From Escherichia coli (GTDB taxonomy: Bacteria; Pseudomonadota; Gammaproteobacteria; Enterobacterales; Enterobacteriaceae): 64,000 bases of DNA. Both the position numbers and the translations under genes were made by a program. The notes below the pieces were generated by a model. The model was not told the origin of the DNA and did not search any database. It worked only from the letters and a program-made list of their open reading frames with translations. Location of the stretch: the NCBI RefSeq assembly GCF_003334765.1, contig NZ_QOWT01000015.1, one strand, 5' to 3'. The stretch's first letter is position 1, and each line of letters begins with the position of its first letter. Below are positions 1 to 52,530 of the stretch, in pieces.

Positions 1-158
1 AGCAGGGGATTGACCGGATGGCCGGACGTCACTCCGCCGGGGCACACCGAACAGGCCACGCCGGTGGGGGCACCAATGCGCACCCCGGCTGAACCCTGAA
101 CAATGCTACCGCCATACTGCGTCATGTCGCCCTGACGCGCTGCCGGTTTTCCGCTCAT
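1..158 (-). CDS. rhsA: Rhs element core protein, N-terminal 52 codons only (gene continues beyond the window start)
   Basis: Minus-strand ATG at 156-158; translation MSGKPAARQGDMTQYGGSIVQGSAGVRIGAPTGVACSVCPGG is the conserved Rhs N-terminus; position next to yibF as in K-12. Confidence 0.7.
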   Translation of the reverse strand, partial: MSGKPAARQGDMTQYGGSIVQGSAGVRIGAPTGVACSVCPGGVTSGHPVNPL

Positions 159-385
159 TTCTCATCCTTGTTTTATCGGGTTATTTGTCTGCTGACAGGC
201 GAAACCCTACAGATTTATAAGAAAGCCTGAAGTGAGATATCCATCAGAGTGAAATAATTAGGAAAATATTTATATCACCATGATAAATATGTGATTTATT
301 TGGAAGTAACAAACCATCAACATTTTCTGCCCTTTTTCCCATCACCAGGCCATACTGATATTTTTCCTCGCACAAAGGACTCGGC

Positions 386-994
386 ATGAAACTCGTCGGT
401 AGCTACACCAGCCCGTTTGTACGCAAACTTTCTATTCTGTTGTTAGAAAAGGGCATAACTTTCGAATTTATTAATGAACTGCCCTATAACGCGGACAACG
501 GCGTGGCGCAATTTAACCCGTTAGGAAAAGTGCCGGTGCTGGTGACCGAAGAGGGCGAATGCTGGTTTGATTCGCCGATCATCGCTGAATATATTGAATT
601 AATGAATGTCGCTCCGGCGATGTTGCCGCGCGATCCGCTGGAGTCGTTGCGGGTGCGCAAAATTGAGGCACTGGCGGATGGCATTATGGATGCCGGGCTG
701 GTATCGGTGCGTGAACAGGCGCGTCCAGCGGCGCAGCAGTCTGAAGATGAATTGTTACGCCAGCGGGAGAAAATCAACCGCAGTCTGGATGTGCTGGAAG
801 GATATCTGGTCGATGGCACACTCAAAACCGATACGGTCAATCTGGCGACTATCGCCATTGCCTGTGCCGTCGGATATCTCAATTTCCGCCGCGTTGCGCC
901 AGGTTGGTGTGTCGACCGCCCACACTTAGTCAAACTGGTCGAAAACCTGTTTAGCCGCGAAAGTTTTGCTCGCACCGAACCGCCAAAGGCTTGA
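386..994 (+). CDS. yibF: Glutathione S-transferase-like protein YibF
   Basis: 202-aa ORF, GST fold-like N-terminus ([14 protein letters not shown]...); synteny upstream of selA. Confidence 0.9.
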
Positions 995-1091
995 TGCGCG
1001 ATATGTCCTCCTGACCCATCTCACGTTACAATCCGTGGTTATGTTAAACGCCCTTCTCCGTGTGAGAGGGCCTTGATCAGCCAGGTTTCCT

Positions 1092-2483
1092 ATGACAACC
1101 GAAACGCGTTCCCTCTATAGTCAACTTCCGGCTATTGATCGCTTATTGCGCGATAGCTCCTTCCTTTCTTTGCGTGATACTTATGGTCACACCCGCGTGG
1201 TGGAATTGTTGCGTCAGATGCTCGACGAAGCGCGAGAAGTGATTCGTGGCAGCCAGACGCTGCCTGCGTGGTGTGAAAACTGGGCGCAAGAAGTCGATGC
1301 CCGGTTGACGAAAGAAGCGCAGAGCGCGCTGCGTCCGGTGATCAACCTGACGGGAACCGTGCTGCATACCAACCTTGGGCGAGCTTTACAGGCGGAAGCC
1401 GCGGTGGAAGCCGTTGCGCAGGCTATGCGTTCGCCAGTGACCCTCGAGTATGATCTGGACGACGCCGGACGCGGACATCGCGATCGGGCGCTGGCGCAGC
1501 TGCTGTGCCGTATTACGGGGGCGGAAGATGCCTGTATCGTCAATAACAATGCGGCGGCGGTGTTATTGATGTTGGCGGCCACTGCCAGCGGAAAAGAGGT
1601 GGTGGTATCTCGCGGCGAACTGGTGGAGATTGGCGGCGCGTTTCGTATTCCCGATGTTATGCGTCAGGCAGGCTGCACCCTACACGAAGTAGGGACCACC
1701 AACCGCACGCACGCGAATGATTATCGTCAGGCGGTGAATGAAAATACCGCACTGTTGATGAAAGTACATACCAGTAACTACAGCATTCAGGGGTTCACCA
1801 AAGCGATAGATGAAGCGGAACTGGTGGCGCTCGGCAAAGAGCTGGATGTTCCCGTAGTGACTGATTTAGGCAGTGGCTCGCTGGTCGATCTTAGCCAGTA
1901 CGGTTTGCCGAAAGAGCCAATGCCGCAGGAGTTGATTGCGGCGGGCGTCAGTCTGGTGAGTTTCTCCGGCGACAAGTTGTTAGGCGGGCCGCAGGCAGGA
2001 ATTATTGTTGGTAAAAAAGAGATGATCGCCCGCCTGCAAAGCCACCCGCTGAAGCGTGCATTACGCGCGGATAAAATGACCCTCGCGGCGCTGGAAGCCA
2101 CGTTGCGTCTTTATTTACACCCTGAAGCTCTGAGTGAAAAATTACCGACCCTGCGCCTGCTTACCCGCAGCGCAGAGGTCATTCAAATCCAGGCACAACG
2201 TTTACAGGCCCCCCTTGCCGCACATTACGGCGCGGAGTTTGCGGTACAGGTTATGCCATGTCTTTCGCAGATTGGCAGTGGTTCGCTGCCGGTTGATCGC
2301 CTGCCGAGCGCGGCATTAACGTTTACACCCCATGATGGACGCGGTAGCCACCTTGAGTCATTAGCCGCCCGCTGGCGTGAATTGCCAGTGCCGGTGATTG
2401 GTCGTATTTATGACGGACGATTGTGGCTGGATTTACGCTGCCTTGAAGATGAGCAACGGTTTTTGGAGATGTTGTTGAAATGA
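1092..2483 (+). CDS. selA: L-seryl-tRNA(Sec) selenium transferase
   Basis: 463-aa ORF; stop overlaps selB start (ATGA at 2480-2483). Confidence 0.93.
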
Positions 2484-4324
2484 TTATTGCGACTGCCGGA
2501 CACGTTGACCACGGCAAAACAACCTTATTGCAGGCGATTACTGGCGTAAATGCTGACCGTCTGCCGGAAGAAAAAAAGCGCGGCATGACCATCGATCTCG
2601 GCTATGCCTACTGGCCGCAGCCGGATGGTCGCGTGCCTGGTTTTATCGACGTTCCCGGTCATGAAAAGTTTCTTTCCAACATGCTGGCGGGCGTTGGTGG
2701 TATCGATCACGCGCTGTTGGTGGTGGCGTGCGATGACGGCGTGATGGCACAGACCCGTGAGCATCTGGCGATTTTGCAGCTGACCGGTAACCCGATGCTG
2801 ACAGTGGCGCTGACCAAAGCCGATCGCGTGGACGAAGCGCGTGTTGATGAGGTTGAACGCCAGGTAAAGGAGGTTCTGCGGGAATACGGTTTTGCTGAGG
2901 CAAAACTGTTTATCACCGCAGCAACCGAAGGTCGGGGAATGGATGCCCTGCGCGAGCATCTGCTTCAGTTGCCGGAACGCGAGCACGCCAGCCAACATAG
3001 TTTCCGCCTCGCGATTGACCGCGCATTTACCGTAAAAGGTGCCGGGCTGGTCGTCACCGGTACGGCGTTAAGCGGGGAAGTGAAGGTAGGCGATTCACTC
3101 TGGCTGACTGGTGTAAATAAACCGATGCGTGTACGTGCGCTGCATGCGCAAAACCAGCCAACAGAAACCGCCAATGCCGGGCAGCGTATCGCGCTTAACA
3201 TCGCGGGTGATGCGGAAAAAGAGCAGATTAACCGTGGCGACTGGCTGCTTGCCGATGTGCCGCCAGAGCCGTTCACACGGGTGATTGTCGAGCTTCAAAC
3301 CCATACACCGCTGACCCAGTGGCAGCCGCTGCATATTCACCACGCCGCCAGCCACGTCACGGGACGCGTTTCACTGCTGGAAGATAACCTTGCTGAACTG
3401 GTCTTCGACACCCCGTTATGGCTGGCAGATAACGACCGCCTGGTATTGCGCGATATCTCTGCCCGCAACACGCTGGCCGGAGCGCGCGTCGTGATGCTTA
3501 ACCCGCCGCGTCGCGGTAAACGTAAGCCGGAATATCTGCAATGGCTGGCGTCTCTTGCACGGGCGCAGAGCGATGCCGATGCGTTATCTGTTCATCTGGA
3601 ACGCGGCGCGGTTAACCTTGCGGATTTCGCCTGGGCGCGCCAGCTCAACGGCGAAGGGATGCGCGAATTGCTGCAACAGCCTGGTTATATTCAGGCTGGT
3701 TATAGCTTGTTGAATGCGCCGGTTGCCGCCCGCTGGCAGCGGAAAATTCTCGACACATTAGCGACTTATCATGAGCAACATCGCGATGAACCTGGCCCTG
3801 GGCGCGAACGTCTGCGACGTATGGCGTTGCCAATGGAAGATGAAGCGCTGGTACTGTTGCTGATTGAAAAGATGCGCGAAAGCGGCGACATCCACAGCCA
3901 TCACGGCTGGCTGCATCTGCCAGATCACAAAGCGGGCTTCAGCGAAGAGCAGCAGGCCATCTGGCAAAAAGCAGAGCCACTGTTTGGTGACGAACCGTGG
4001 TGGGTGCGTGACCTGGCAAAAGAGACGGGAACCGACGAGCAGGCAATGCGCCTGACTCTACGCCAGGCGGCGCAGCAAGGAATAATTACCGCGATCGTTA
4101 AAGATCGTTATTACCGTAACGATCGGATTGTCGAGTTTGCCAATATGATCCGCGATCTCGATCAGGAGTGTGGTTCAACCTGCGCGGCGGATTTCCGCGA
4201 TCGCTTAGGCGTAGGCCGAAAGCTGGCAATTCAGATTCTGGAATATTTTGACCGCATTGGCTTTACGCGTCGTCGTGGAAATGATCATTTATTGCGCGAC
4301 GCATTATTATTTCCGGAAAAATAA
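2480..4324 (+). CDS. selB: Selenocysteine-specific translation elongation factor
   Basis: 614-aa ORF; N-terminal GTP-binding motif [11 protein letters not shown]; translationally coupled to selA. Confidence 0.93.
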
Positions 4325-4383
4325 GGAAATGATTAATTAAGTTTTAAAATAAATTAATACAAAATTCTTATGAATTTAAAAAA

Positions 4384-4419
4384 AGCACATTGTTTAATGA
4401 ATACAATGTGCTTTTTATT
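4384..4419 (+). terminator. Rho-independent terminator of selAB
   Basis: Inverted repeat agcacattg / caatgtgct followed by ttttatt, in an AT-rich spacer. Confidence 0.7.
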
Positions 4420-5829: not shown

Positions 5830-7368
5830 ATGACCAATAATCCCCCTTCAGCACAGATTAAGCCCGGCGAGTATGGTTTCCCCCTCAAGTTAAAAGCCCG
5901 CTATGACAACTTTATTGGCGGCGAATGGGTAGCCCCTGCCGACGGCGAGTATTACCAGAATCTGACGCCGGTGACCGGGCAGCTGCTGTGCGAAGTGGCG
6001 TCTTCGGGCAAACGAGACATCGATCTGGCGCTGGATGCTGCGCACAAAGTGAAAGATAAATGGGCGCACACCTCGGTGCAGGATCGTGCGGCGATTCTGT
6101 TTAAGATTGCCGATCGAATGGAACAAAACCTCGAGCTGTTAGCGACAGCTGAAACCTGGGATAACGGCAAACCCATTCGCGAAACCAGTGCTGCGGATGT
6201 ACCGCTGGCGATTGACCATTTCCGCTATTTCGCCTCGTGTATTCGGGCGCAGGAAGGTGGGATCAGTGAAGTTGATAGCGAAACCGTGGCCTATCATTTC
6301 CATGAACCGTTAGGCGTGGTGGGGCAGATTATCCCGTGGAACTTCCCGCTGCTGATGGCGAGCTGGAAAATGGCTCCCGCGCTGGCGGCGGGCAACTGTG
6401 TGGTGCTGAAACCCGCACGTCTTACCCCGCTTTCTGTACTGCTGCTAATGGAAATTGTCGGTGATTTACTGCCGCCGGGCGTGGTGAACGTGGTCAATGG
6501 CGCAGGTGGGGTAATTGGCGAATATCTGGCGACCTCGAAACGCATCGCCAAAGTGGCGTTTACCGGCTCAACGGAAGTGGGCCAACAAATTATGCAATAC
6601 GCAACGCAAAACATTATTCCGGTGACGCTGGAGTTGGGCGGTAAGTAGCCAAATATCTTCTTTGCTGATGTGATGGATGAAGAAGATGCCTTTTTCGATA
6701 AAGCGCTGGAAGGCTTTGCACTGTTTGCCTTTAACCAGGGCGAAGTTTGCACCTGTCCGAGTCGTGCTTTAGTGCAGGAATCTATCTACGAACGCTTTAT
6801 GGAACGCGCCATCCGCCGTGTCGAAAGCATTCGTAGCGGTAACCCGCTCGACAGCGTGACGCAAATGGGCGCGCAGGTTTCTCACGGGCAACTGGAAACC
6901 ATCCTCAACTACATTGATATCGGTAAAAAAGAGGGCGCTGACGTGCTCACAGGCGGGCGGCGCAAGCTGCTGGAAGGTGAACTGAAAGACGGCTACTACC
7001 TCGAACCGACGATTCTGTTTGGTCAGAACAATATGCGGGTGTTCCAGGAGGAGATTTTTGGCCCGGTGCTGGCGGTGACCACCTTCAAAACGATGGAAGA
7101 AGCGCTGGAGCTGGCGAACGATACGCAATATGGCCTGGGCGCGGGCGTCTGGAGCCGCAACGGTAATCTGGCCTATAAGATGGGGCGCGGCATACAGGCT
7201 GGGCGCGTGTGGACCAACTGTTATCACGCTTACCCGGCACATGCGGCGTTTGGTGGCTACAAACAATCAGGTATCGGTCGCGAAACCCACAAGATGATGC
7301 TGGAGCATTACCAGCAAACCAAGTGCCTGCTGGTGAGCTACTCGGATAAACCGTTGGGGCTGTTCTGA
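5830..7368 (+). pseudogene. aldB: Aldehyde dehydrogenase B, interrupted by an in-frame TAG at 6646-6648
   Basis: A continuous 513-codon frame is split into ORFs 5692-6648 and 6670-7368 in the same frame; ALDH catalytic Glu motif LELGGK sits immediately before the stop and the Cys motif [12 protein letters not shown] follows it. Confidence 0.85.
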
Positions 7369-7399
7369 TATAAGAAGCTGGTCGCATTGGGTATTCATT

Positions 7400-7483
7400 G
7401 CCTGATGCGACGCTTACGCGTCTTATCATGCCTACGGGAACCTGACCGTAGGCCGGATAAGGCGTACACGCCGCATCCGGCAT
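7400..7483. repeat. REP/BIME element (two inverted REP units)
   Basis: gcctgatgcgacgcttacgcgtcttatcatgcctac ... gtaggccggataaggcgtacacgccgcatccggcat palindromic units. Confidence 0.8.
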
Positions 7484-7912
7484 AAACAAAGCGCACGTTG
7501 TTACAATTTACGTTTTAAACCTACGTGCGCAATAACCCAGACTACGCCAACAGAAGTACGTTTCTGGGGCGTGTTTTGTCAGGAGTTTAATCTCGCGTTT
7601 CGATGGTGAGCGGGCGAACCAGGCCGTAAATCACCATTGGTGATCCGAGGCCAATCAGCAATAAACGGTAGATAATTGAAGGTTTAATACGCTTAATCTG
7701 TACTGTGGATGTTTTACTGGAGTTATTCATTAGTTTGGCCAATAGTTCCACTATTTCAATATGATAAACCTCGTCCTGTTGAAAAACCAGACAGCACATT
7801 TAAGAAAGTATATAAAAAACAATATGTCGTTATATAAATAAGGAAATTGCACTGCATCATGGCATTTCATAATATGCGTTAATTGTTCTTTTTTATATTC
7901 TTTGAGGGAAAT

Positions 7913-8236
7913 ATGTTCCTGGACTATTTTGCACTGGGAGTGCTTATTTTTGTATTTCTGGTGATCTTCTATGGGATCATTATTTTACATGATATTCCCT
8001 ACCTGATTGCCAAAAAACGTAATCATCCTCATGCCGACGCCATTCATGTTGCTGGTTGGGTGAGTCTTTTTACGTTACATGTTATCTGGCCGTTTTTGTG
8101 GATTTGGGCCACGCTTTACCGCCCGGAGCGGGGATGGGGAATGCAAAGCCATGATTCATCCGTTATGCAACTGCAACAGCGCATTGCCGGGCTGGAGAAA
8201 CAGCTCGCCGACATCAAATCCTCTTCTGCCGAGTAA
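7913..8236 (+). CDS. yiaW: Small inner-membrane protein YiaW (DUF3302)
   Basis: 107-aa ORF with two hydrophobic segments; RBS gaggg upstream; 5 bp upstream of yiaV. Confidence 0.85.
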
Positions 8237-8241
8237 TACTT

Positions 8242-9378
8242 ATGGATTTACTGATTATTTTGACCTATGTGGCTTTTGCATGGGCAATGTTTAAGATCTT
8301 CAAAATTCCCGTAAATAAATGGACCATTCCCACAGCGGCCCTGGGTGGAATATTTATTGTCAGCGGTCTAATTCTGTTAATGAACTATAACCATCCGTAT
8401 ACCTTTAAAGCGCAAAAAGCGGTTATTTCTATTCCTGTTGTCCCACAGGTGACTGGTGTGGTGATTGAAGTGACGGATAAGAAAAATACGCTGATTAAAA
8501 AAGGTGAGGTGCTATTTCGACTGGACCCGACGCGTTATCAGGCGCGGGTGGATCGGCTGATGGCGGATATCGTTACCGCAGAACATAAACAGCGGGCGTT
8601 GGGCGCAGAGTTAGATGAGATGGCGGCGAATACTCAGCAGGCAAAGGCCACGCGGGATAAATTCGCTAAAGAGTATCAGCGTTACGCACGTGGCAGCCAG
8701 GCGAAAGTAAACCCGTTTTCAGAACGCGATATCGATGTGGCGCGGCAAAATTATCTGGCGCAGGAAGCCTCCGTGAAGTCATCGGCGGCGGAACAAAAAC
8801 AGATCCAGAGCCAGCTGGATAGCCTGGTGTTGGGTGAACATTCTCAAATCGCCAGCCTGAAAGCACAGCTCGCGGAAGCAAAATATAACCTTGAGCAGAC
8901 GATAGTGCGTGCGCCGAGCGATGGTTATGTGACCCAGGTACTGATTCGTCCGGGTACCTATGCCGCGTCGCTGCCGCTACGTCCGGTGATGGTGTTTATA
9001 CCCGATCAGAAACGACAAATCGTGGCGCAGTTCCGTCAGAACTCCTTGCTGCGACTGGCTCCTGGCGACGATGCGGAAGTGGTGTTTAATGCTCTGCCAG
9101 GTAAGGTATTCAGCGGTAAGCTGGCAGCCATTAGTCCAGCCGTTCCCGGCGGAGCTTATCAGTCGACCGGCACCTTACAGACGTTAAACACAGCGCCGGG
9201 TTCAGATGGCGTTATCGCGACCATTGAACTGGATGAGCACACTGATTTGAGCGCTTTACCAGACGGTATTTACGCCCAGGTGGCGGTTTACTCTGATCAT
9301 TTCAGCCATGTCTCGGTGATGCGCAAAGTGCTATTACGCATGACCAGCTGGGTGCATTACCTTTATCTCGATCATTAA
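8242..9378 (+). CDS. yiaV: HlyD-family membrane fusion protein YiaV
   Basis: 378-aa ORF with N-terminal TM segment and coiled-coil region. Confidence 0.88.
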
Positions 9379-10349
9379 TCTTCGCTTTCCGCCGCTTGTT
9401 CAGGCCGCAGTTGCTGCGACTGAGCAAGCTGGTGGCGAATTTCACGCAGCATTTCATCCAGCACATACTGGACCCGCCAGGGCTGGTATTCCCGTTTACG
9501 GAAGATAGCCACCAGATCCAGCCACCATTCATAGGGTTGCTGAAAGCAGGGCACCAGCGTGCCGTCTTGCAGGTCGCTCTGCACACTTTTGTCTGGCGCA
9601 AACACAATCCCCAGGTGATTTCGTGCCAGCTCCAGCGCAGATTGCGTGTTGTCGCAAACGTAATTTCCCTTCACGCGATAATCCCGCACCTCTTTACTCC
9701 CGGCGACGTTGAAGCGCCAGATATTCGCGTCGTCGATCATCATCGAGTCGATCAAAATACAGGAGTGATGTTCGAGTTCGTCAGGACGGCTAATGGGATG
9801 TTTCTCAAGATAGCGCTGGCTGGCATAAGCGGTTACGGCATATTGGGTAATAAAACTGGCAACCAGCGATTCATCTTTTGGTGGAGCGTAGCTGATTAAA
9901 ACATCACAATCATCAGGAAATTCGACGCCTTCATAAAAGGCATTACGCTCAAGATTGCAGGTTTTTAGCGATAAGGTGATATCACCGATATCTTTAATTT
10001 TATCGATTACATGTTTGGATAAATAGGTAATTATGCCGGTTGGGGCGTAGATGGTGACCCGACCACGTTTCTCATGCTTATAATCTGCAATAAAATTATT
10101 AAGTTGCTCGTTTCTGTCCAGCATGTCGTTGATGTACGGTAACAGCGCGGTGCCAAAAGGTGTGAGCATCAGCTGCCGGGTGGTTCGGTCAAAGACTTTT
10201 AAACCCACTTTTGATTCAAAATCAGCAAGATATTTGCTGACGTTGGCCTGTGCGATGCCAAGTACAGTCGCGGCATGGCTGATATTTTCACTGGCAGCGA
10301 TTACCGAGATAATTTTTAACTCCCGGTACTTAAGTTGTAATTTTGTCAT
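9375..10349 (-). CDS. yiaU: LysR-family transcriptional regulator
   Basis: 324-aa ORF; N-terminal LysR HTH ([18 protein letters not shown]); convergent with yiaV, 4-bp overlap. Confidence 0.9.
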
Positions 10350-10472
10350 CGCAACAGCCCAATTATATATAATTTTATATATTACTATATAAATATGAAT
10401 CTTGCACCGGAGAAATTGTAAGCATTATTATGCCGACTCTTTTTTATCTTATTTTAAAATGGAATACCGGAC

Positions 10473-11213
10473 ATGTTAATTAATCGCAATATTGTGGCGT
10501 TATTTGCGTTGCCTTTTATGGCAAGCGCAACTGCTTCTGAATTATCCATTGGTGCTGGTGCGGCTTATAATGAATCGCCTTATCGCGGTTATAATGAAAA
10601 TACGAAGGCAATTCCGCTGATTAGTTATGAAGGTGATACTTTTTATGTTCGTCAGACCACGTTAGGTTTTATTCTGTCGCAAAGTGAAAAAAATGAACTT
10701 AGCCTGACCGCATCCTGGATGCCGCTGGAATTTGACCCTACCGATAATGACGATTATGCCATGCAACAGCTTGATAAGCGTGATAGTACGGCTATGGCGG
10801 GGGTTGCCTGGTATCACCACGAGCGTTGGGGAACCGTGAAAGCCTCTGCAGCTGCGGACGTTCTGGATAACAGCAACGGCTGGGTGGGGGAGCTATCGGT
10901 ATTCCACAAAATGCAGATAGGTCGTCTGTCGCTGACACCTGCGCTGGGCGTTCTCTATTATGACGAGAATTTCAGTGACTATTACTATGGCATTTCAGAG
11001 AGTGAGTCCCGTCGTAGCGGTCTGGCAAGTTATTCCGCGCAGGATGCCTGGGTGCCCTATGTCAGCCTGACGGCAAAATACCCGATAGGAGAGCACGTCG
11101 TATTGATGGCGAGCGCAGGATACAGCGAGCTGCCGGAAGAGATTACCGACAGCCCGATGATTGATCGTAATGAGAGTTTTACCTTTGTCACCGGGGTGAG
11201 CTGGCGTTTTTAA
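10473..11213 (+). CDS. yiaT: MipA/OmpV-family outer membrane protein
   Basis: 246-aa ORF with signal peptide and C-terminal aromatic residue (beta-barrel terminus). Confidence 0.88.
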   Translation: MLINRNIVALFALPFMASATASELSIGAGAAYNESPYRGYNENTKAIPLISYEGDTFYVRQTTLGFILSQSEKNELSLTASWMPLEFDPTDNDDYAMQQLDKRDSTAMAGVAWYHHERWGTVKASAAADVLDNSNGWVGELSVFHKMQIGRLSLTPALGVLYYDENFSDYYYGISESESRRSGLASYSAQDAWVPYVSLTAKYPIGEHVVLMASAGYSELPEEITDSPMIDRNESFTFVTGVSWRF

Positions 11214-11559
11214 TTCACCGGTGGATGTCGGTGCGGCTGGTGCTCCGTCGTAATGCCACAAAGGTTGTTGCTCTGGATTGCTCTGTTCATACCGGGAACC
11301 TGGCGTCTGAATCAGGATCTTATGGCTGAACAATCCCTTGCCTTCAAATGTCGTAAATGGCGCATCGGCGGGCAGCAACAGGTTATGCAGTGACTCGACG
11401 TTGTCGGCCTGCTCCATGCAATACGGTTTAATGACGTTGGCTATTTCCGGCAGATTTTTCAGAAACATACTGGTTTAACGCCAGCAGCGTGGAAGCGGCG
11501 TTACAGCAAGGAACATATCAATTCGTAGTGCCGGGGCGATGAAGCCCCGGCGTGAGGGA

Positions 11560-12255
11560 TTACTGCCCGTAATAGGCATTGGCCCCATGCTTACGCAGGT
11601 AGTGCTTATCCAGCAGTTCGTTTTGCATCGCAGGGAGCTGCGGCGCAAGCTGGCGCGAGAATAGACCCATATAGGCGCATTCTTCGAGTACTACGGCGTT
11701 ATGCACGGCATCGGCGGCGTTTTTACCCCATGCGAACGGGCCGTGAGAATGCACCAGCACCGCCGGGATTTGTGCCGGACTCCTGCCACGTTCTTCGAAG
11801 GTTTCAATGATCACTTCGCCGGTCTGATATTCATATTCGCCGTTAATCTCCTCTGCGGTCATCTGTCGCGTGCAGGGGATGGCACCGTAAAAATAATCGG
11901 CGTGGGTGGTGCCCCAGGCGGGGAGATCCAGCCCGGCCTGTGACCAGATGGTGGCGTGGCGCGAGTGGGTATGCACAATACCGCCAATTTCGGCATAGCG
12001 ACGGTAGAGCGCCAGATGCGTTGGTGTATCGGAAGAGGGTTTTTTGCTGCCTTCCACCACCTTACCGCTGGCTATCTCAACCACCACCATATCGTCGGCG
12101 GTCATCACGTCGTACTCGACGCCGGAAGGTTTGATTACCATCCATTGCCGCGTTTCGTCTACCGCGCTGACATTGCCCCAGGTGAACGTCACCAGATGGT
12201 GAGCGGGAAGCGCCAGATTCGCCGCCAGCACGTCGGCTTTCAGTTGCTCTAACAT
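11560..12255 (-). CDS. sgbE: L-ribulose-5-phosphate 4-epimerase
   Basis: 231-aa ORF, class II aldolase/AraD-like; last gene of the yiaK-S operon. Confidence 0.92.
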
Positions 12256-13109
12256 ATAAATCCAGCCTCCTGCATACGCGCTTCAATCCAACGCCGCGCC
12301 TGAATAATCTCCAGCACCGGCTCTTTGGCTTTTTCGGTCCACATCTCAATCAGGAAAGAACCGCGATAGTTCAGTTTATGCAGCGTTTTGAAGATGCCAA
12401 CGAAATCGACGCAGCCTTCGCCAAACGGCACGTCGCGGAACTGTCCGGGACTTTGCCCGGTGACTGGCTGGGTGTCTTTCAGGTGGATCGCGGCGATACG
12501 GTCAATGCCCAGTTTCAGTTCGGCGGGAACATCATTGCCCCAGGCGCTGAGGTTGCCGACGTCCGGGTAGACGGTGAACCACGGTGAGGCGAGCATCTCG
12601 TCCCATTTTTTCCATTTGCTGATGGAGTTCATAAACGCGGTATCCATAATCTCCACCGCCAGCATTACTTGTGATGCCGCCGCCTGTTCGACTGCCCACG
12701 CCAGCCCTTCAGCAAAACGTTGCCGGGTGCCTTCGTCGTGGTCTTCGTAATAGACGTCATAACCTGCCAGCTGGATGGTGCGAATGCCGAGATCGCGCGC
12801 CAGGCGAATCGCTTTACTCATGATTTCCCGCGCCCGTTCGCGCACTGCCTCGTCACGGCTACCAAAGGGAAAGCGACGATGTGCGGACAGGCACATCGAC
12901 GGGATCCCAACACCTGTTTCGATCATCGCGGCAACCAGCGAAGTCCTTTGTGCGGCGCTCCAGTCAAGACGTGAGAGCCGTTCGTCGGTTTCATCCACCG
13001 ACATTTCGACAAAATCAAAACCGCAGCTTTTTGCCAGCACCAGCCGCTCCGGCCAGGAGAGATCTTTCGCCAGCGCTTTTTCATAAATCCCTAACGGATG
13101 ATTACGCAC
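12249..13109 (-). CDS. sgbU: L-xylulose-5-phosphate 3-epimerase (probable GTG start)
   Basis: 286 codons from GTG at 13107-13109; UlaE-like sequence ([11 protein letters not shown]...); overlaps sgbH end and sgbE start. Confidence 0.85.
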
Positions 13110-13764
13110 GCGCACCTCCCCAGATAGCGTCGATTTGCGCATGGAAATCGCCAGCCACTTGCGCCGGATTTGCCGCGCCTGCCAGTGCCCGCCCGGCAAT
13201 AAACGCTTTCACGCGGATATCTTTAAACAGCGGCAGGTCAGCAGGGGTAATCCCGCCAGTAATGGAAAGCTCAAGGCCGATATCTGAAAGCGCCTTCATG
13301 CGTGCCAGATCGGCTTCGCCCCACTGTTGCCCGCTGGCCTGTGCATCACGACCGCGATGATAAATGGCCTGCCGCACGCCAATACGATGCCAGTCGCGGG
13401 CGTCGTCCAGCGTCCAGTTACCGAACAGCTCTATCTGAATTTCACCCCCGCAGCGTTGTGCCATTGCGTGGCCTTTTTCTACCGTCGCGAGCGGCGCGGC
13501 GCAGATGATGGTCATCCAGTTAGCGCCTGCGCCAAACGCCTGTTGCGCGAGCGTTTCACCAGCGTCGGCGACCTTCCAGTCAGCAACGATGATTTTGTCC
13601 GGGCACTGTTCGCGCAAGGCTTTCACCGCGCCAAGCCCTTCGTTTAAACAGAGAATGGTGCCCGCTTCGACGATATCGACGCTGTCTTTTAACAGCGTCA
13701 CGTCGCGCTGCGCGGCTTCAAGTGATGAGTGGTCGAGGGCCAGTTGCAGAAGTGGTCGGCTCAT
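13102..13764 (-). CDS. sgbH: 3-keto-L-gulonate-6-phosphate decarboxylase
   Basis: 220-aa ORF; AAGGAG RBS upstream of ATG at 13762-13764. Confidence 0.92.
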
Positions 13765-15256
13765 AATGTGTGCTCCTTAATGCGGGCGTGAAAGCCCTGA
13801 AGTGCGGCAATGAGATGCTGATAACGTTGATATTTTTTTGGTAAAGCTGATGGGCGGTCATATCTGGCAGCAGGGTGCGCACCGGGTGTCGCAAGTCACG
13901 TTGGGCTTCGCTGAAGTTGTGATAAACCCCGGTGCCGACGCGGGCGGCAAGGGCCGCACCAAAGCAGCCGGTTTCTTCCACCTGCGGCAGCTCGATACGC
14001 AGACCGCTGACGTCCGCCAGCATTTGCATCCAGACATCGGAGTGCGCCGGGCCGCCAGTGACGCGTAGGGTGTGAACATCAGTAAAACGTTCGCGCATTC
14101 GGTTGAGGTGGGTCATATGGCTGAACACCACCCCTTCATAGATGGCCTGCAACAGGTGCGCGCGGGTGTGAATGGCCTGCATCCCGTAGAAACCACTGGT
14201 CATCTCGAGTCCGGCGTTGCTGCCGTACAGGAACGGCAGGAAAAAGAGATCGCCCCCAGCCTTCGGCAAGCTGGCAACGGCCTGATTGATCTCATCAAAC
14301 GAGATTTCTCCCCACTGTGCGGTAAACCATTCGAGGTTGCCGGAAGAGGTAGGGCTGGCTTCGTGAACGATAAATTCACCATCGTTAACGTAGCGACCAT
14401 AGACATACGGATGCGCTTCACCGTCACGTAAACCGCGGGTTATGCCGCTGGTCACCGCCCAGGTCCCCATCACCGCATTGAGGGTAAATTCGTCTTCGAT
14501 CCCGGCGCAGAGTGCGGTGGAAACCACATCAAACAGGCCGCCAACAACGGGCGTACCCGCTTTCAGACCGGTCAGGGCGGCTGTCTGAGCGGTGATCTCC
14601 CCGCAGATTTCGGCAGATCCGACAACAGGCGGCAGGGCGTGATTGATTTCAGCGATCCCCAGCCAGTCGGTGAGGCACGGGTCATATTCCCCAAGACTCA
14701 TGTTGTAGAGGTTGGACTCGGAAATATTGCTCTCTTCACAGCCTTTGACGCCAGTTAAACACCAGCGCAGGTAGTCGTGCGTCATCATCACGCAGCCAAT
14801 TTGCGCGTAGCGTTCTGGTTCGTGCTCTTTCAGCCAGCGTAACAGCGACACCGGATGCCCGGTCCACAAGGTTTGTCGGGTCAGCGGGTAGAGTTTTTCC
14901 GGGATGCCATCTTCCTGCCAGCGACGAACGATTTCCATCGCCCGGCGGTCCGAGGACAAAATAGCATTCCCGAGCGGTTTGTCGTTTTTATCCAGCAAAA
15001 ACAAGCCCTTTCCCTGTGCGGAGATGCCGATACCGACAATTTGTTCCCCGCTAACACCAGAATGAGTAAGCAGGGCGCGAATGACAGCCATGCAGCATTG
15101 CCACAGTTCTGCCATATCGCGCTCTGCCCAGCCTGGCTGCGGGCTTAATGCGCACAGCGGCAGGCGCTGCACGCCTGCCTCCCGGCCTTCGCGGTCATAC
15201 AGCCCGGCTTTCAGCCAGCTACCGCCACAATCTAACCCCAGCCAGTATTGCGTCAT
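13718..15256 (-). CDS. lyxK: L-xylulose kinase, apparently frameshifted at the C-terminus (canonical stop would be at 13761-13763)
   Basis: FGGY-kinase N-terminus (GLDCGGSWLK); ORF is 512 aa rather than 498; tail after LYQK is low-complexity read-through into sgbH; an alternative frame gives a clean ...[25 protein letters not shown] stop. Confidence 0.85.
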   Translation of the reverse strand: MTQYWLGLDCGGSWLKAGLYDREGREAGVQRLPLCALSPQPGWAERDMAELWQCCMAVIRALLTHSGVSGEQIVGIGISAQGKGLFLLDKNDKPLGNAILSSDRRAMEIVRRWQEDGIPEKLYPLTRQTLWTGHPVSLLRWLKEHEPERYAQIGCVMMTHDYLRWCLTGVKGCEESNISESNLYNMSLGEYDPCLTDWLGIAEINHALPPVVGSAEICGEITAQTAALTGLKAGTPVVGGLFDVVSTALCAGIEDEFTLNAVMGTWAVTSGITRGLRDGEAHPYVYGRYVNDGEFIVHEASPTSSGNLEWFTAQWGEISFDEINQAVASLPKAGGDLFFLPFLYGSNAGLEMTSGFYGMQAIHTRAHLLQAIYEGVVFSHMTHLNRMRERFTDVHTLRVTGGPAHSDVWMQMLADVSGLRIELPQVEETGCFGAALAARVGTGVYHNFSEAQRDLRHPVRTLLPDMTAHQLYQKNINVISISLPHFRAFTPALRSTHYEPTTSATGPRPLIT

Positions 15257-40055: not shown

Positions 40056-40288
40056 ATCGCTAAATAATACAGCAACCTTTAATAATCTTCTGCTGAATAA
40101 AGATTATCTCATATATTAATTTTATGAGATTTTTTTAGGATTATATCAAGGAGAAGAAACAAACTTATTAAGCTAGAATAGCCACGGGTGCTTGAGACTG
40201 TTTGTCTCAGGTATTCACCGAAAGGCAGACAGAGAAAAGCCCCACCTGACTATAAATCAAAGTTGGAAATCAACACAGGAGGCTGGGA

Positions 40289-52196: not shown

Positions 52197-52362
<166 letters not shown>

Positions 52363-52422: not shown

Positions 52423-52530
52423 AATCCTCTATCACCGACCAAATTCGAAAAGCCTGCTCAACGAGCAGGCTTTTTTGCATCTGCAGCTCATGAGGATGAG
52501 AACCTCCGGGGGCAGGGAGGTTCGACTCGA
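52423..52530 (+). repeat. Direct repeat copy 2 (tRNA-Pro 3' fragment plus terminator copy)
   Basis: Perfect 108-bp match to 52255-52362; the six-frame ORF 52156-52680 shows the same 37-residue peptide twice. Confidence 0.9.

Follow-up and report, generated by a model that had tools for sequence, protein, structure and literature searches.

The closest described counterparts of the lesions analysed here are of several kinds, and the comparison is instructive for each. In Salmonella enterica the AT 8+mer loci, which are homopolymer frameshift pseudogenes attributed to slipped-strand mispairing, include lyxK (PMC8538453). The lyxK lesion in our window (the whole 64-kb stretch of Escherichia coli DNA that was analysed) resembles these loci in that a 1-bp length change in a coding A8 run leads to an annotated pseudogene of a gene that is also listed there, but it differs from them in that the window allele is fixed within a clade, whereas in Salmonella the entry for lyxK concerns a substitution in S. 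Gallinarum instead of this deletion. The aldB lesion is in turn comparable to the pseudogenes that PGAP labels as internal stop in commensal E. coli, such as ybcI and envY in strain CPF6, where one nonsense substitution interrupts a non-essential full-length gene; unlike these, the aldB stop occurs in no complete RefSeq genome.

Two other known systems share features with lyxK without accounting for it. As in phase-variable contingency loci, homopolymer length within the lyxK open reading frame sets the frame and reversion from A7 to A8 would be mechanistically easy, but the tract is short and no switching is seen: the best-matching near-identical genomes listed all carry A7 and the other sampled haplotypes are all of A8 length. 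As in programmed -1 frameshifting of the dnaX type (A_AAA_AAG), lyxK has an A-rich slippery stretch on which a -1 slip restores the frame, but its two-frame layout is not conserved, derives from a recent deletion and is not expected to be accompanied by a stimulatory element; the exact A8 single-frame allele is present in 1,349 genomes, and divergent haplotypes have the A8 length too. The literature yielded nothing specific on a lyxK frameshift or an aldB pseudogene in E. coli.

Two lesions in an otherwise K-12-like window

The first-pass annotation had reported a nonsense codon in aldB and a frameshift in lyxK among genes of otherwise K-12 length, and both lesions are seen by translation and by comparison with K-12 (Table 1). 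What it stated about the remaining open reading frames is also true of the window's other 56 K-12 genes: 56 of the 58 K-12 coding sequences checked keep the K-12 length, the only departures being aldB (272 vs 512 aa) and lyxK (512 vs 498 aa). Identical length was recorded for 55 of the 58 compared with K-12, mostly with zero amino-acid changes, and sgbU is 286 aa long with one substitution relative to K-12. Comparison of the window with K-12 MG1655 over the 64 kb yields 14 SNPs and a single indel, that of lyxK, and comparison with CPF6, the nearest complete relative, yields 5 SNPs and no indels, while only one of 24 long homopolymers is altered with respect to K-12 (23 are unchanged). The window also has a private synonymous SNP, 16985T.

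Allele counts were obtained from 81-, 82- and 101-nt queries, read via identity bands. Megablast with allele queries of 33-34 nt gave 'No match' for the TAG allele of aldB as well as for the two lyxK alleles, an uninformative outcome given that the lyxK alleles are certainly present.

Table 1. Features of the two disrupted genes, with positions in the window
Feature	Position	Strand	Description and basis
aldB (aldehyde dehydrogenase B)	5830..7368	+	K-12-length 1539 nt, interrupted by a stop; translation, RefSeq annotation of matching records
Premature amber codon TAG, codon 273 of 512	6646..6648	+	Translation and comparison with NZ_CP051001 and K-12
Residual ORF, 231 aa (M282-F512)	6673..7368	+	Reported by gene callers as a separate C-terminal AldB fragment
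lyxK (L-xylulose/3-keto-L-gulonate kinase), frameshifted 512-aa ORF	13718..15256	-	Translation; PGAP 'frameshifted' on identical sequence
A7 homopolymer (A8 in K-12)	13833..13839	-	Site of 1-bp deletion, codons 473-475 (CAA AAA AAA); sole indel vs K-12 in 64 kb
Original 3' end of lyxK, now out of frame	13761..13832	-	Contains native TGA overlapping the sgbH ATG (ATGA)
sgbH (annotated ulaD-like decarboxylase), intact	13102..13764	-	Overlapped by the extended lyxK ORF

The lyxK frameshift

The lyxK gene of the window is exactly one base apart from that of K-12 (CAAAAAAAAT in K-12, CAAAAAAAT in the window). The product is identical to that of K-12 over residues 1-474 and out of frame over residues 475-512, the last 24 residues being replaced by 38 unrelated ones, and the open reading frame now ends 47 nt inside sgbH, with which it overlaps by 4 nt in K-12. 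This is a frameshift pseudogene in the sense of PGAP, a 1-bp indel having shifted the frame relative to the full-length orthologues, and the span that PGAP assigns to the pseudogene is equivalent to 13761-15256. Both domains of the FGGY carbohydrate kinase family are recognized in the protein (FGGY_N, PF00370, residues 4-250, E = 6e-96; FGGY_C, PF02782, residues 259-440, E = 9e-21), and it has homologues in the PDB. The position of the shift beyond the Pfam domains, together with a fully intact rest of the operon, fits a recent lesion and retained function alike.

An exact 81-mer of the A7 allele was found in 61 complete genomes and an exact 82-mer of the A8 allele in 1,349, while the lyxK segment was unmatched in 1,696 of 5,426 complete genomes. 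All the divergent haplotypes sampled have the A8 length and A7 is therefore the derived state. Its carriers were isolated from chicken, pig, human, crow and seawater and include old NCTC strains, the identical lyxK is flagged as frameshifted by PGAP in NZ_CP051001 and NZ_CP075737, and the 512-aa product is found on at least 1000 contigs. Judged by this distribution, the A7 allele is an inherited and derived clade marker, an older polymorphism than the aldB stop.

The most probable course of events is that replication slippage dropped one A of the A8 run in the ancestor of a K-12-like E. coli sub-clade. With 38 unrelated residues in place of its last 24, the kinase would lose a conserved C-terminal helix, and we infer that LyxK activity is weakened or abolished by the frameshift. 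Translation of lyxK would now stop 47 nt into sgbH instead of at the native ATGA overlap, and translational coupling to sgbH may also be disturbed. If LyxK is lost, the YiaK-S route that converts 2,3-diketo-L-gulonate or L-xylulose into D-xylulose-5-P would be blocked.

It is conceivable, though we consider it unlikely, that the A7 allele is not dead, either because the 512-aa protein works or because occasional -1 slippage of the ribosome or the RNA polymerase restores a near-native C-terminus. The shift falls beyond both Pfam domains, the native downstream frame remains open, and the sequence indicates that a -1 slip of tRNA-Lys on A AAA A (codons CAA AAA AAT) would give Q-K-K-Y as in K-12. 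However, the alignment with homologues of solved structure extends across the replaced segment, through residues 482-495, and identifies that segment as a conserved C-terminal helix of FGGY kinases; all other sampled haplotypes have A8 and a single frame, which argues against selection for a recoding signal, and a run of seven A is short for efficient slippage. The persistence of the allele and its spread over hosts and continents, as well as the intact state of the eight other genes of the operon, would also be in favour of a working product, but the A7 carriers diverge by just ~1e-4 per site and intact neighbours may simply mean that the lesion is young. A weakened or abolished kinase is our preferred reading of the lyxK frameshift.

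The amber codon of aldB and its recurrence

In aldB a C to A change at position 6647 turns TCG, the serine codon in the same frame of NZ_CP051001 and K-12, into TAG. This base is the sole difference between the window gene and the aldB genes of K-12 and CPF6, and apart from the stop the encoded product matches K-12 AldB with 100% identity. The translation contains the domain and both the glutamate (ELGGKSP) and the cysteine (GEVC) motifs of the Aldedh family, and the precomputed Pfam matches (PF00171) cover both AldB fragments. The amber codon lies within the glutamate active-site motif, upstream of the cysteine motif, GEVC(307), and this in-frame stop removing a downstream catalytic motif makes aldB a nonsense (internal-stop) pseudogene. 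We propose that a recent C to A transversion in one clone gave rise to the amber codon at Ser273. Because the resulting product of 272 residues would keep Glu268 but lack the catalytic Cys307 along with the entire C-terminal half, the TAG allele is, as predicted from its translation, a null allele. The 231-aa C-terminal product is called in every place where aldB is broken upstream of that open reading frame. About 0.5 kb downstream of aldB lies yiaW, a separately annotated neighbour; a terminator scan gave no consensus terminator directly after aldB and no terminator-like site between the two genes, a result that is silent on polarity.

The 101-mer query around the amber codon matched aldB in 5,354 complete RefSeq genomes, all of which present TCG (Ser) at codon 273 and none of which has the amber codon; the sources of the TAG are draft, read-set and metagenome assemblies only. 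Three contigs match the window with 100% identity over long distances, the TAG included: 12,977 nt in GCA_965137835.1, spanning both lesions and 16985T, 7,268 nt in SRR1122539 and 3,034 nt in ERR14335420. A look-up of exact protein matches to the 272-aa AldB fragment gave 10 places, of which seven (L008-L014) are just contig ends; they were rejected as TAG carriers, the contigs ending at codon 272 with base 6647 uncovered. The clustering of these ends at codon 272 was likewise rejected as a breakpoint, being a selection effect of the look-up itself.

The same TAG is present in a second lineage (L017, L018, L019 and L021) that diverges from the window by about 1% and in which the flanking aldB markers at nt 683, 1005, 1392 and 1416 are unlike those of the window. 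The distribution as a whole indicates that the aldB stop is inherited, recent and confined to one clone apart from this second-lineage occurrence. Recurrence of the amber codon on a second haplotype is not predicted by purely neutral single-origin decay.

Independent origin of the Ser273 TCG to TAG change in the two backgrounds could be due to loss of aldB being favoured by selection, as a niche advantage, or to codon 273 being a hotspot of G:C to T:A mutation. The identical codon on two haplotypes ~1% apart with different flanking markers would be explained in this way, the chance of coincidence per independent event is 1 of 169 possible nonsense SNVs, and elsewhere aldB is also disrupted by IS1 and other insertions. 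Against this, some coincidence is to be expected in the very large collection searched, a conversion patch of less than 322 bp could also have carried the TAG between haplotypes, its absence from the 5,354 complete genomes gives no sign of a sweep, and inspection of the sequence around 6647 reveals no repeat or quasi-palindrome favouring C to A. A template-switch hotspot at 6647 was considered and rejected, because the GGCG...CGCC stem is weakened, not improved, by the mutation; no mechanism was found. Taking these arguments together, repeated origin through selection or mutational bias seems to us improbable, and we regard the recurrence as a modest lead on parallel loss of the gene.

Origin of the two lesions and their significance

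Very probably, both lesions are genuine and vertically inherited changes in dispensable catabolic genes, their origins are independent and differ in time and in mechanism, their closeness is a coincidence and the window is reliable. The first-pass annotation had left the choice between real lesions under relaxed selection and a local drop in sequence quality, and it is the former that is clearly favoured. A 1-bp homopolymer change such as that of lyxK is a classic type of error and the aldB stop is missing from all 5,354 matching complete RefSeq genomes, but an origin of one or both lesions in sequencing or assembly error is very improbable. The identical A7 run occurs in 61 independent complete genomes, the aldB TAG recurs in data from other sequencing efforts that show 100% identity to the window (GCA_965137835.1, SRR1122539 and ERR14335420), so that neither variant is limited to a single assembly, and the TAG of the second lineage is accompanied by that lineage's own SNPs. 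The window is moreover free of indel noise, with no additional indel across the 64 kb relative to either of two references (0 vs CPF6, and vs K-12 only that of lyxK). The window sequence is thus apparently reliable, with base-call support that derives from independent assemblies, some of them perhaps the same strain resequenced.

The first-pass annotation had also treated the lesions as a joint property of this strain and their closeness as informative, and neither idea survives the comparison with other genomes. The lyxK allele is shared by a clade and older, whereas the aldB stop is recent and clonal. In CPF6, a sister genome, PGAP flags 10 pseudogene features in the 266 kb sampled (~1 per 27 kb), and its internal-stop pair, ybcI and envY, lies 8.3 kb apart; four of its pseudogenes in 266 kb are point lesions, which leads to an expectation of about one per 64 kb and to a Poisson probability of two or more of ~0.25. 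The 7-kb spacing of the aldB and lyxK lesions is within chance, and because pseudogene density in CPF6 is similar their closeness carries no information. A functional link, in which two steps of one metabolic network were lost by co-adaptation, is scarcely credible and was rejected on the differing distributions: both are carbon-metabolism genes 7 kb apart, but 61 complete genomes combine A7 with an intact aldB, lesion ages differ, pseudogenes are comparably dense elsewhere in CPF6, and stationary-phase aldehyde oxidation and ketogulonate/pentulose phosphorylation are unrelated pathways.

Both genes can be considered dispensable because the whole yibG-yiaH block, aldB and lyxK included, is missing from the genome-reduced strain DGF-298 (PMC10652928), and lyxK also because of the large fraction of complete genomes in which its segment is unmatched. 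Relaxed selection on both genes, each with one lesion and no further decay, is plausible. These results are chiefly of use in quality control. The window is trustworthy, and its annotation should record aldB as a real nonsense pseudogene and lyxK as a real frameshift allele rather than have them 'corrected'. The two lesions represent ordinary gene decay, and neither the lyxK marker nor the recurrence of the aldB stop alters current understanding. For the biology of the species, the A7 deletion in lyxK is a handy marker for a K-12-like E. coli sub-clade, and the YiaK-S pathway for ketogulonate and L-xylulose may be blocked in the clade that carries it.

Disruption of aldB and lyxK and its predicted consequences

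A nonsense mutation in aldB and a frameshift in lyxK had been reported in the first-pass annotation, and both readings held on comparison with K-12. Translation of the frame at 5830-7368 (+ strand) yielded the K-12 AldB protein with one in-frame stop at codon 273, which encodes Ser in the same frame of NZ_CP051001 (O157:H16 strain 98-3133), the sole base difference being C to A at window position 6647 (TCG to TAG). The stop falls inside the motif L-E268-L-G-G-K-S273-P and 34 codons ahead of the motif G-E-V-C307, which we take to be the glutamate and cysteine active-site signatures of aldehyde dehydrogenases, and Pfam Aldedh matches both AldB fragments. Because the stop precedes C307, the predicted 272-residue product would be devoid of the nucleophile and of the enzyme's C-terminal half, and, as the catalytic Cys is missing, the allele is probably null. 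AldB is a stationary-phase aldehyde dehydrogenase; about 0.5 kb downstream of aldB lies its neighbour yiaW, annotated as a distinct gene, and a terminator scan gave no consensus site immediately after aldB.

The yiaKLMNO-lyxK-sgbHUE operon, whose kinase is LyxK, is repressed by YiaJ/PlaR (PMC6958661); in Salmonella, lyxK is one of the AT 8-mer loci listed as mutable (PMC8538453). A single base separates the window's gene from that of K-12 (A8 to A7), and slippage of the A8 tract during replication probably accounts for the loss. Residues 1-474 remain native, the 24 terminal native residues give way to 38 unrelated ones, and the resulting 512-aa ORF stops 47 nt into sgbH; in K-12 the lyxK TGA and the sgbH ATG overlap as ATGA, and the change may alter coupling to sgbH. 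Pfam places FGGY_N at 4-250 and FGGY_C at 259-440, so that the frameshift lies past both domains. Alignments to FGGY kinases of solved structure (3ifr and LsrK 5ya0) extend across residues 482-495, and since a conserved P-D-x5-Y-x3-Y pattern falls there, the replaced segment appears to be part of the conserved fold; replacement of the terminal helix would probably damage the kinase. That the 512-aa protein, with both domains upstream of the frameshift, is partly active, or that low-level rescue occurs via -1 slippage on A AAA AAT, seems unlikely. SgbH, SgbU and SgbE have Ula paralogues and the kinase is not known to have one, and a dead LyxK would therefore block the route of the operon.

Positions of the lesions and of related loci (L-numbers denote matched contigs or loci)
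Feature	Position	Strand	Remark
Span of aldB and lyxK	window 5830-15256		from aldB start (+) to lyxK start (-)
Residual AldB ORF, 231 aa	window 6673-7368	+	second fragment per gene callers
lyxK A7 run	window 13833-13839	-	codons 473-475 (CAA AAA AAA); A8 in K-12
aldB, second lineage, L017	9158-10696		stop corresponds to window 6646-6648
aldB, second lineage, L018	9158-10696		same stop
aldB, second lineage, L019	7827-9365		same stop
aldB, second lineage, L021	5644-7182		same stop
aldB disrupted otherwise, L020	5802-8117
aldB disrupted otherwise, L025	2190-2930
aldB disrupted otherwise, L026	9941-10696
aldB disrupted otherwise, L022
aldB disrupted otherwise, L023
ybcI of CPF6 (L031)	NZ_CP075737.1 4303112-4303633		PGAP 'internal stop'
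envY of CPF6 (L031)	NZ_CP075737.1 4311941-4312702		PGAP 'internal stop'

Sequence background and occurrence of the alleles in other data

The alternative raised earlier, a local drop in sequence quality, is disfavoured by the clean background, the widespread lyxK A7 allele, the presence of the aldB stop in independent data and the SNPs linked to its lineages. The window is an E. coli chromosome segment running from yibF to bcsE, nearly identical with K-12 MG1655, from which it differs by 14 SNPs and a single indel, that of the lyxK run; from CPF6 (NZ_CP075737), its closest complete genome, it differs by 5 SNPs and no indels. Lengths of 58 K-12 CDSs were compared (sgbU being checked separately) and differed in aldB and lyxK only, bearing out the claim that all other genes have K-12 length. 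Among the homopolymers counted (A/T of at least 7, G/C of at least 6), 23 of 24 have K-12 length.

Several further features of the segment were recorded. The A7 run at 4378-4384 (selB-yiaY intergenic) is the same in K-12 and CPF6 and is A8 in NZ_CP051001; this difference, natural or assembly-level, sits in the comparator genome. An IS150 copy of MG1655 and CPF6 is missing from the window at about 40262-40264 (glyS/hokA interval), where the alignment blocks share 3 bp, as expected of an empty target site. BLAST cross-matches revealed two identical 108-bp direct repeats downstream of proK (52255-52362 and 52423-52530), coinciding with the RtT sRNA annotation of K-12 and CPF6. A short stretch between yiaT and sgbE (11235-11424) shows 89% similarity to a portion of a GH127 glycosidase/MFS transporter/AraC regulator cluster; at this remnant PGAP marks two partial pseudogenes.

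Among complete RefSeq genomes, 61 contain the exact 81-mer with A7 and 1,349 the exact 82-mer with A8; of 5,426 complete genomes, 1,696 have no match to the lyxK segment. All divergent haplotypes sampled have the A8 length, which makes A7 the derived state. The A7 allele is carried by isolates from poultry, pigs, humans, a crow and seawater and by old NCTC strains; at least 1000 contigs encode the exact 512-aa product, and the allele is already known, PGAP labelling lyxK in these carriers as 'frameshifted'.

None of the 5,354 complete genomes that match the 101 nt around the site has the aldB TAG; their best matches each show one mismatch. The TAG is present in contigs of GCA_965137835.1 (12,977 nt, 100% identical to the window), SRR1122539 (7,268 nt, 100% identical) and ERR14335420 (3,034 nt, 100% identical), and the allele is already in the databases as two CDSs resulting from the split (CAM3617035.1/CAM3617058.1). 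The GCA_965137835.1 contig also carries lyxK A7 and 16985T, a synonymous change at yiaN codon 184 (ACG to ACA) that is private to the window's clone relative to K-12, CPF6 and NZ_CP051001 and is hence usable as a clone marker. Seven contigs (L008-L014) were rejected as carriers: they end at codon 272 (window up to 6645-6647), and their 272-aa matches are a selection artefact of the exact-sequence look-up.

Recurrence of the amber codon and other disruptions of aldB

Exact look-up of the 231-aa C-terminal fragment identified the same Ser273 TAG in a second lineage, comprising GCA_000704805.1 and GCA_000704825.1 (named E. coli 3-020-07_S4_C2) and two metagenome assemblies, ERZ28623675 and ERZ28615333, and already deposited as split CDSs KDZ41967.1/KDZ41968.1. 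This lineage diverges from the window by about 1% across yibF-yiaT and keeps the GH127/MFS/AraC cluster, complete in L017 and in MARGA_3, the deletion being common to K-12 and the window. MARGA_3, its nearest complete relative, has TCG at codon 273. Because the markers flanking the stop (aldB nt 683 and 1005) have the MARGA_3 state and not the window's, the stop would have arisen either twice or once with transfer in a conversion patch of less than 322 bp. With 169 possible nonsense SNVs in aldB, an independent event coincides with a probability of about 0.6%, which is only mildly surprising because the collection is large. The stop co-occurs with the second lineage's own markers, and such association with lineage-specific SNPs is what an inherited variant shows and a random error does not.

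The same look-up recovered aldB genes broken by an IS1 insertion (nt 835-843), by a junction with genes of a Mu-like prophage (Mom/Com), by foreign DNA, and by rearrangement next to a Fic-domain gene, the identical 231-aa ORF remaining in all of them. Hence it is not rare for aldB to be lost sporadically.

Chance, order and nature of the lesions

PGAP annotates 10 pseudogene features, about one per 27 kb, in the 266 kb of CPF6 examined (the syntenic region and four 50-kb samples taken arbitrarily), including ybcI and envY, 8.3 kb apart, a natural analogue of the aldB/lyxK pattern. Counting point-lesion pseudogenes only (4 in 266 kb), about one is expected per 64-kb window (Poisson P(≥2) ~0.25), and two lesions within 9 kb are not unusual. 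Codon 273 is intact in 61/61 A7 complete genomes; the lyxK deletion is therefore the older, and the aldB stop came later in one clone. Phase variation of the lyxK tract and programmed frameshifting were both rejected, the defining switching of tract length being missing for the former and its defining conservation for the latter.

The two base changes, their genome distribution and the ORF geometry were established directly. The four comparisons against a quality drop argue strongly, if indirectly, that both lesions are real and not local sequence error; in practice, the sequence of the window can be trusted. The genome-reduced strain DGF-298 lacks the entire yibG-yiaH block (PMC10652928), and both aldB and lyxK are dispensable. 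The lesions, one a frameshift in a homopolymer and the other a nonsense substitution, are textbook forms of bacterial pseudogene, and the finding overall is real but ordinary.
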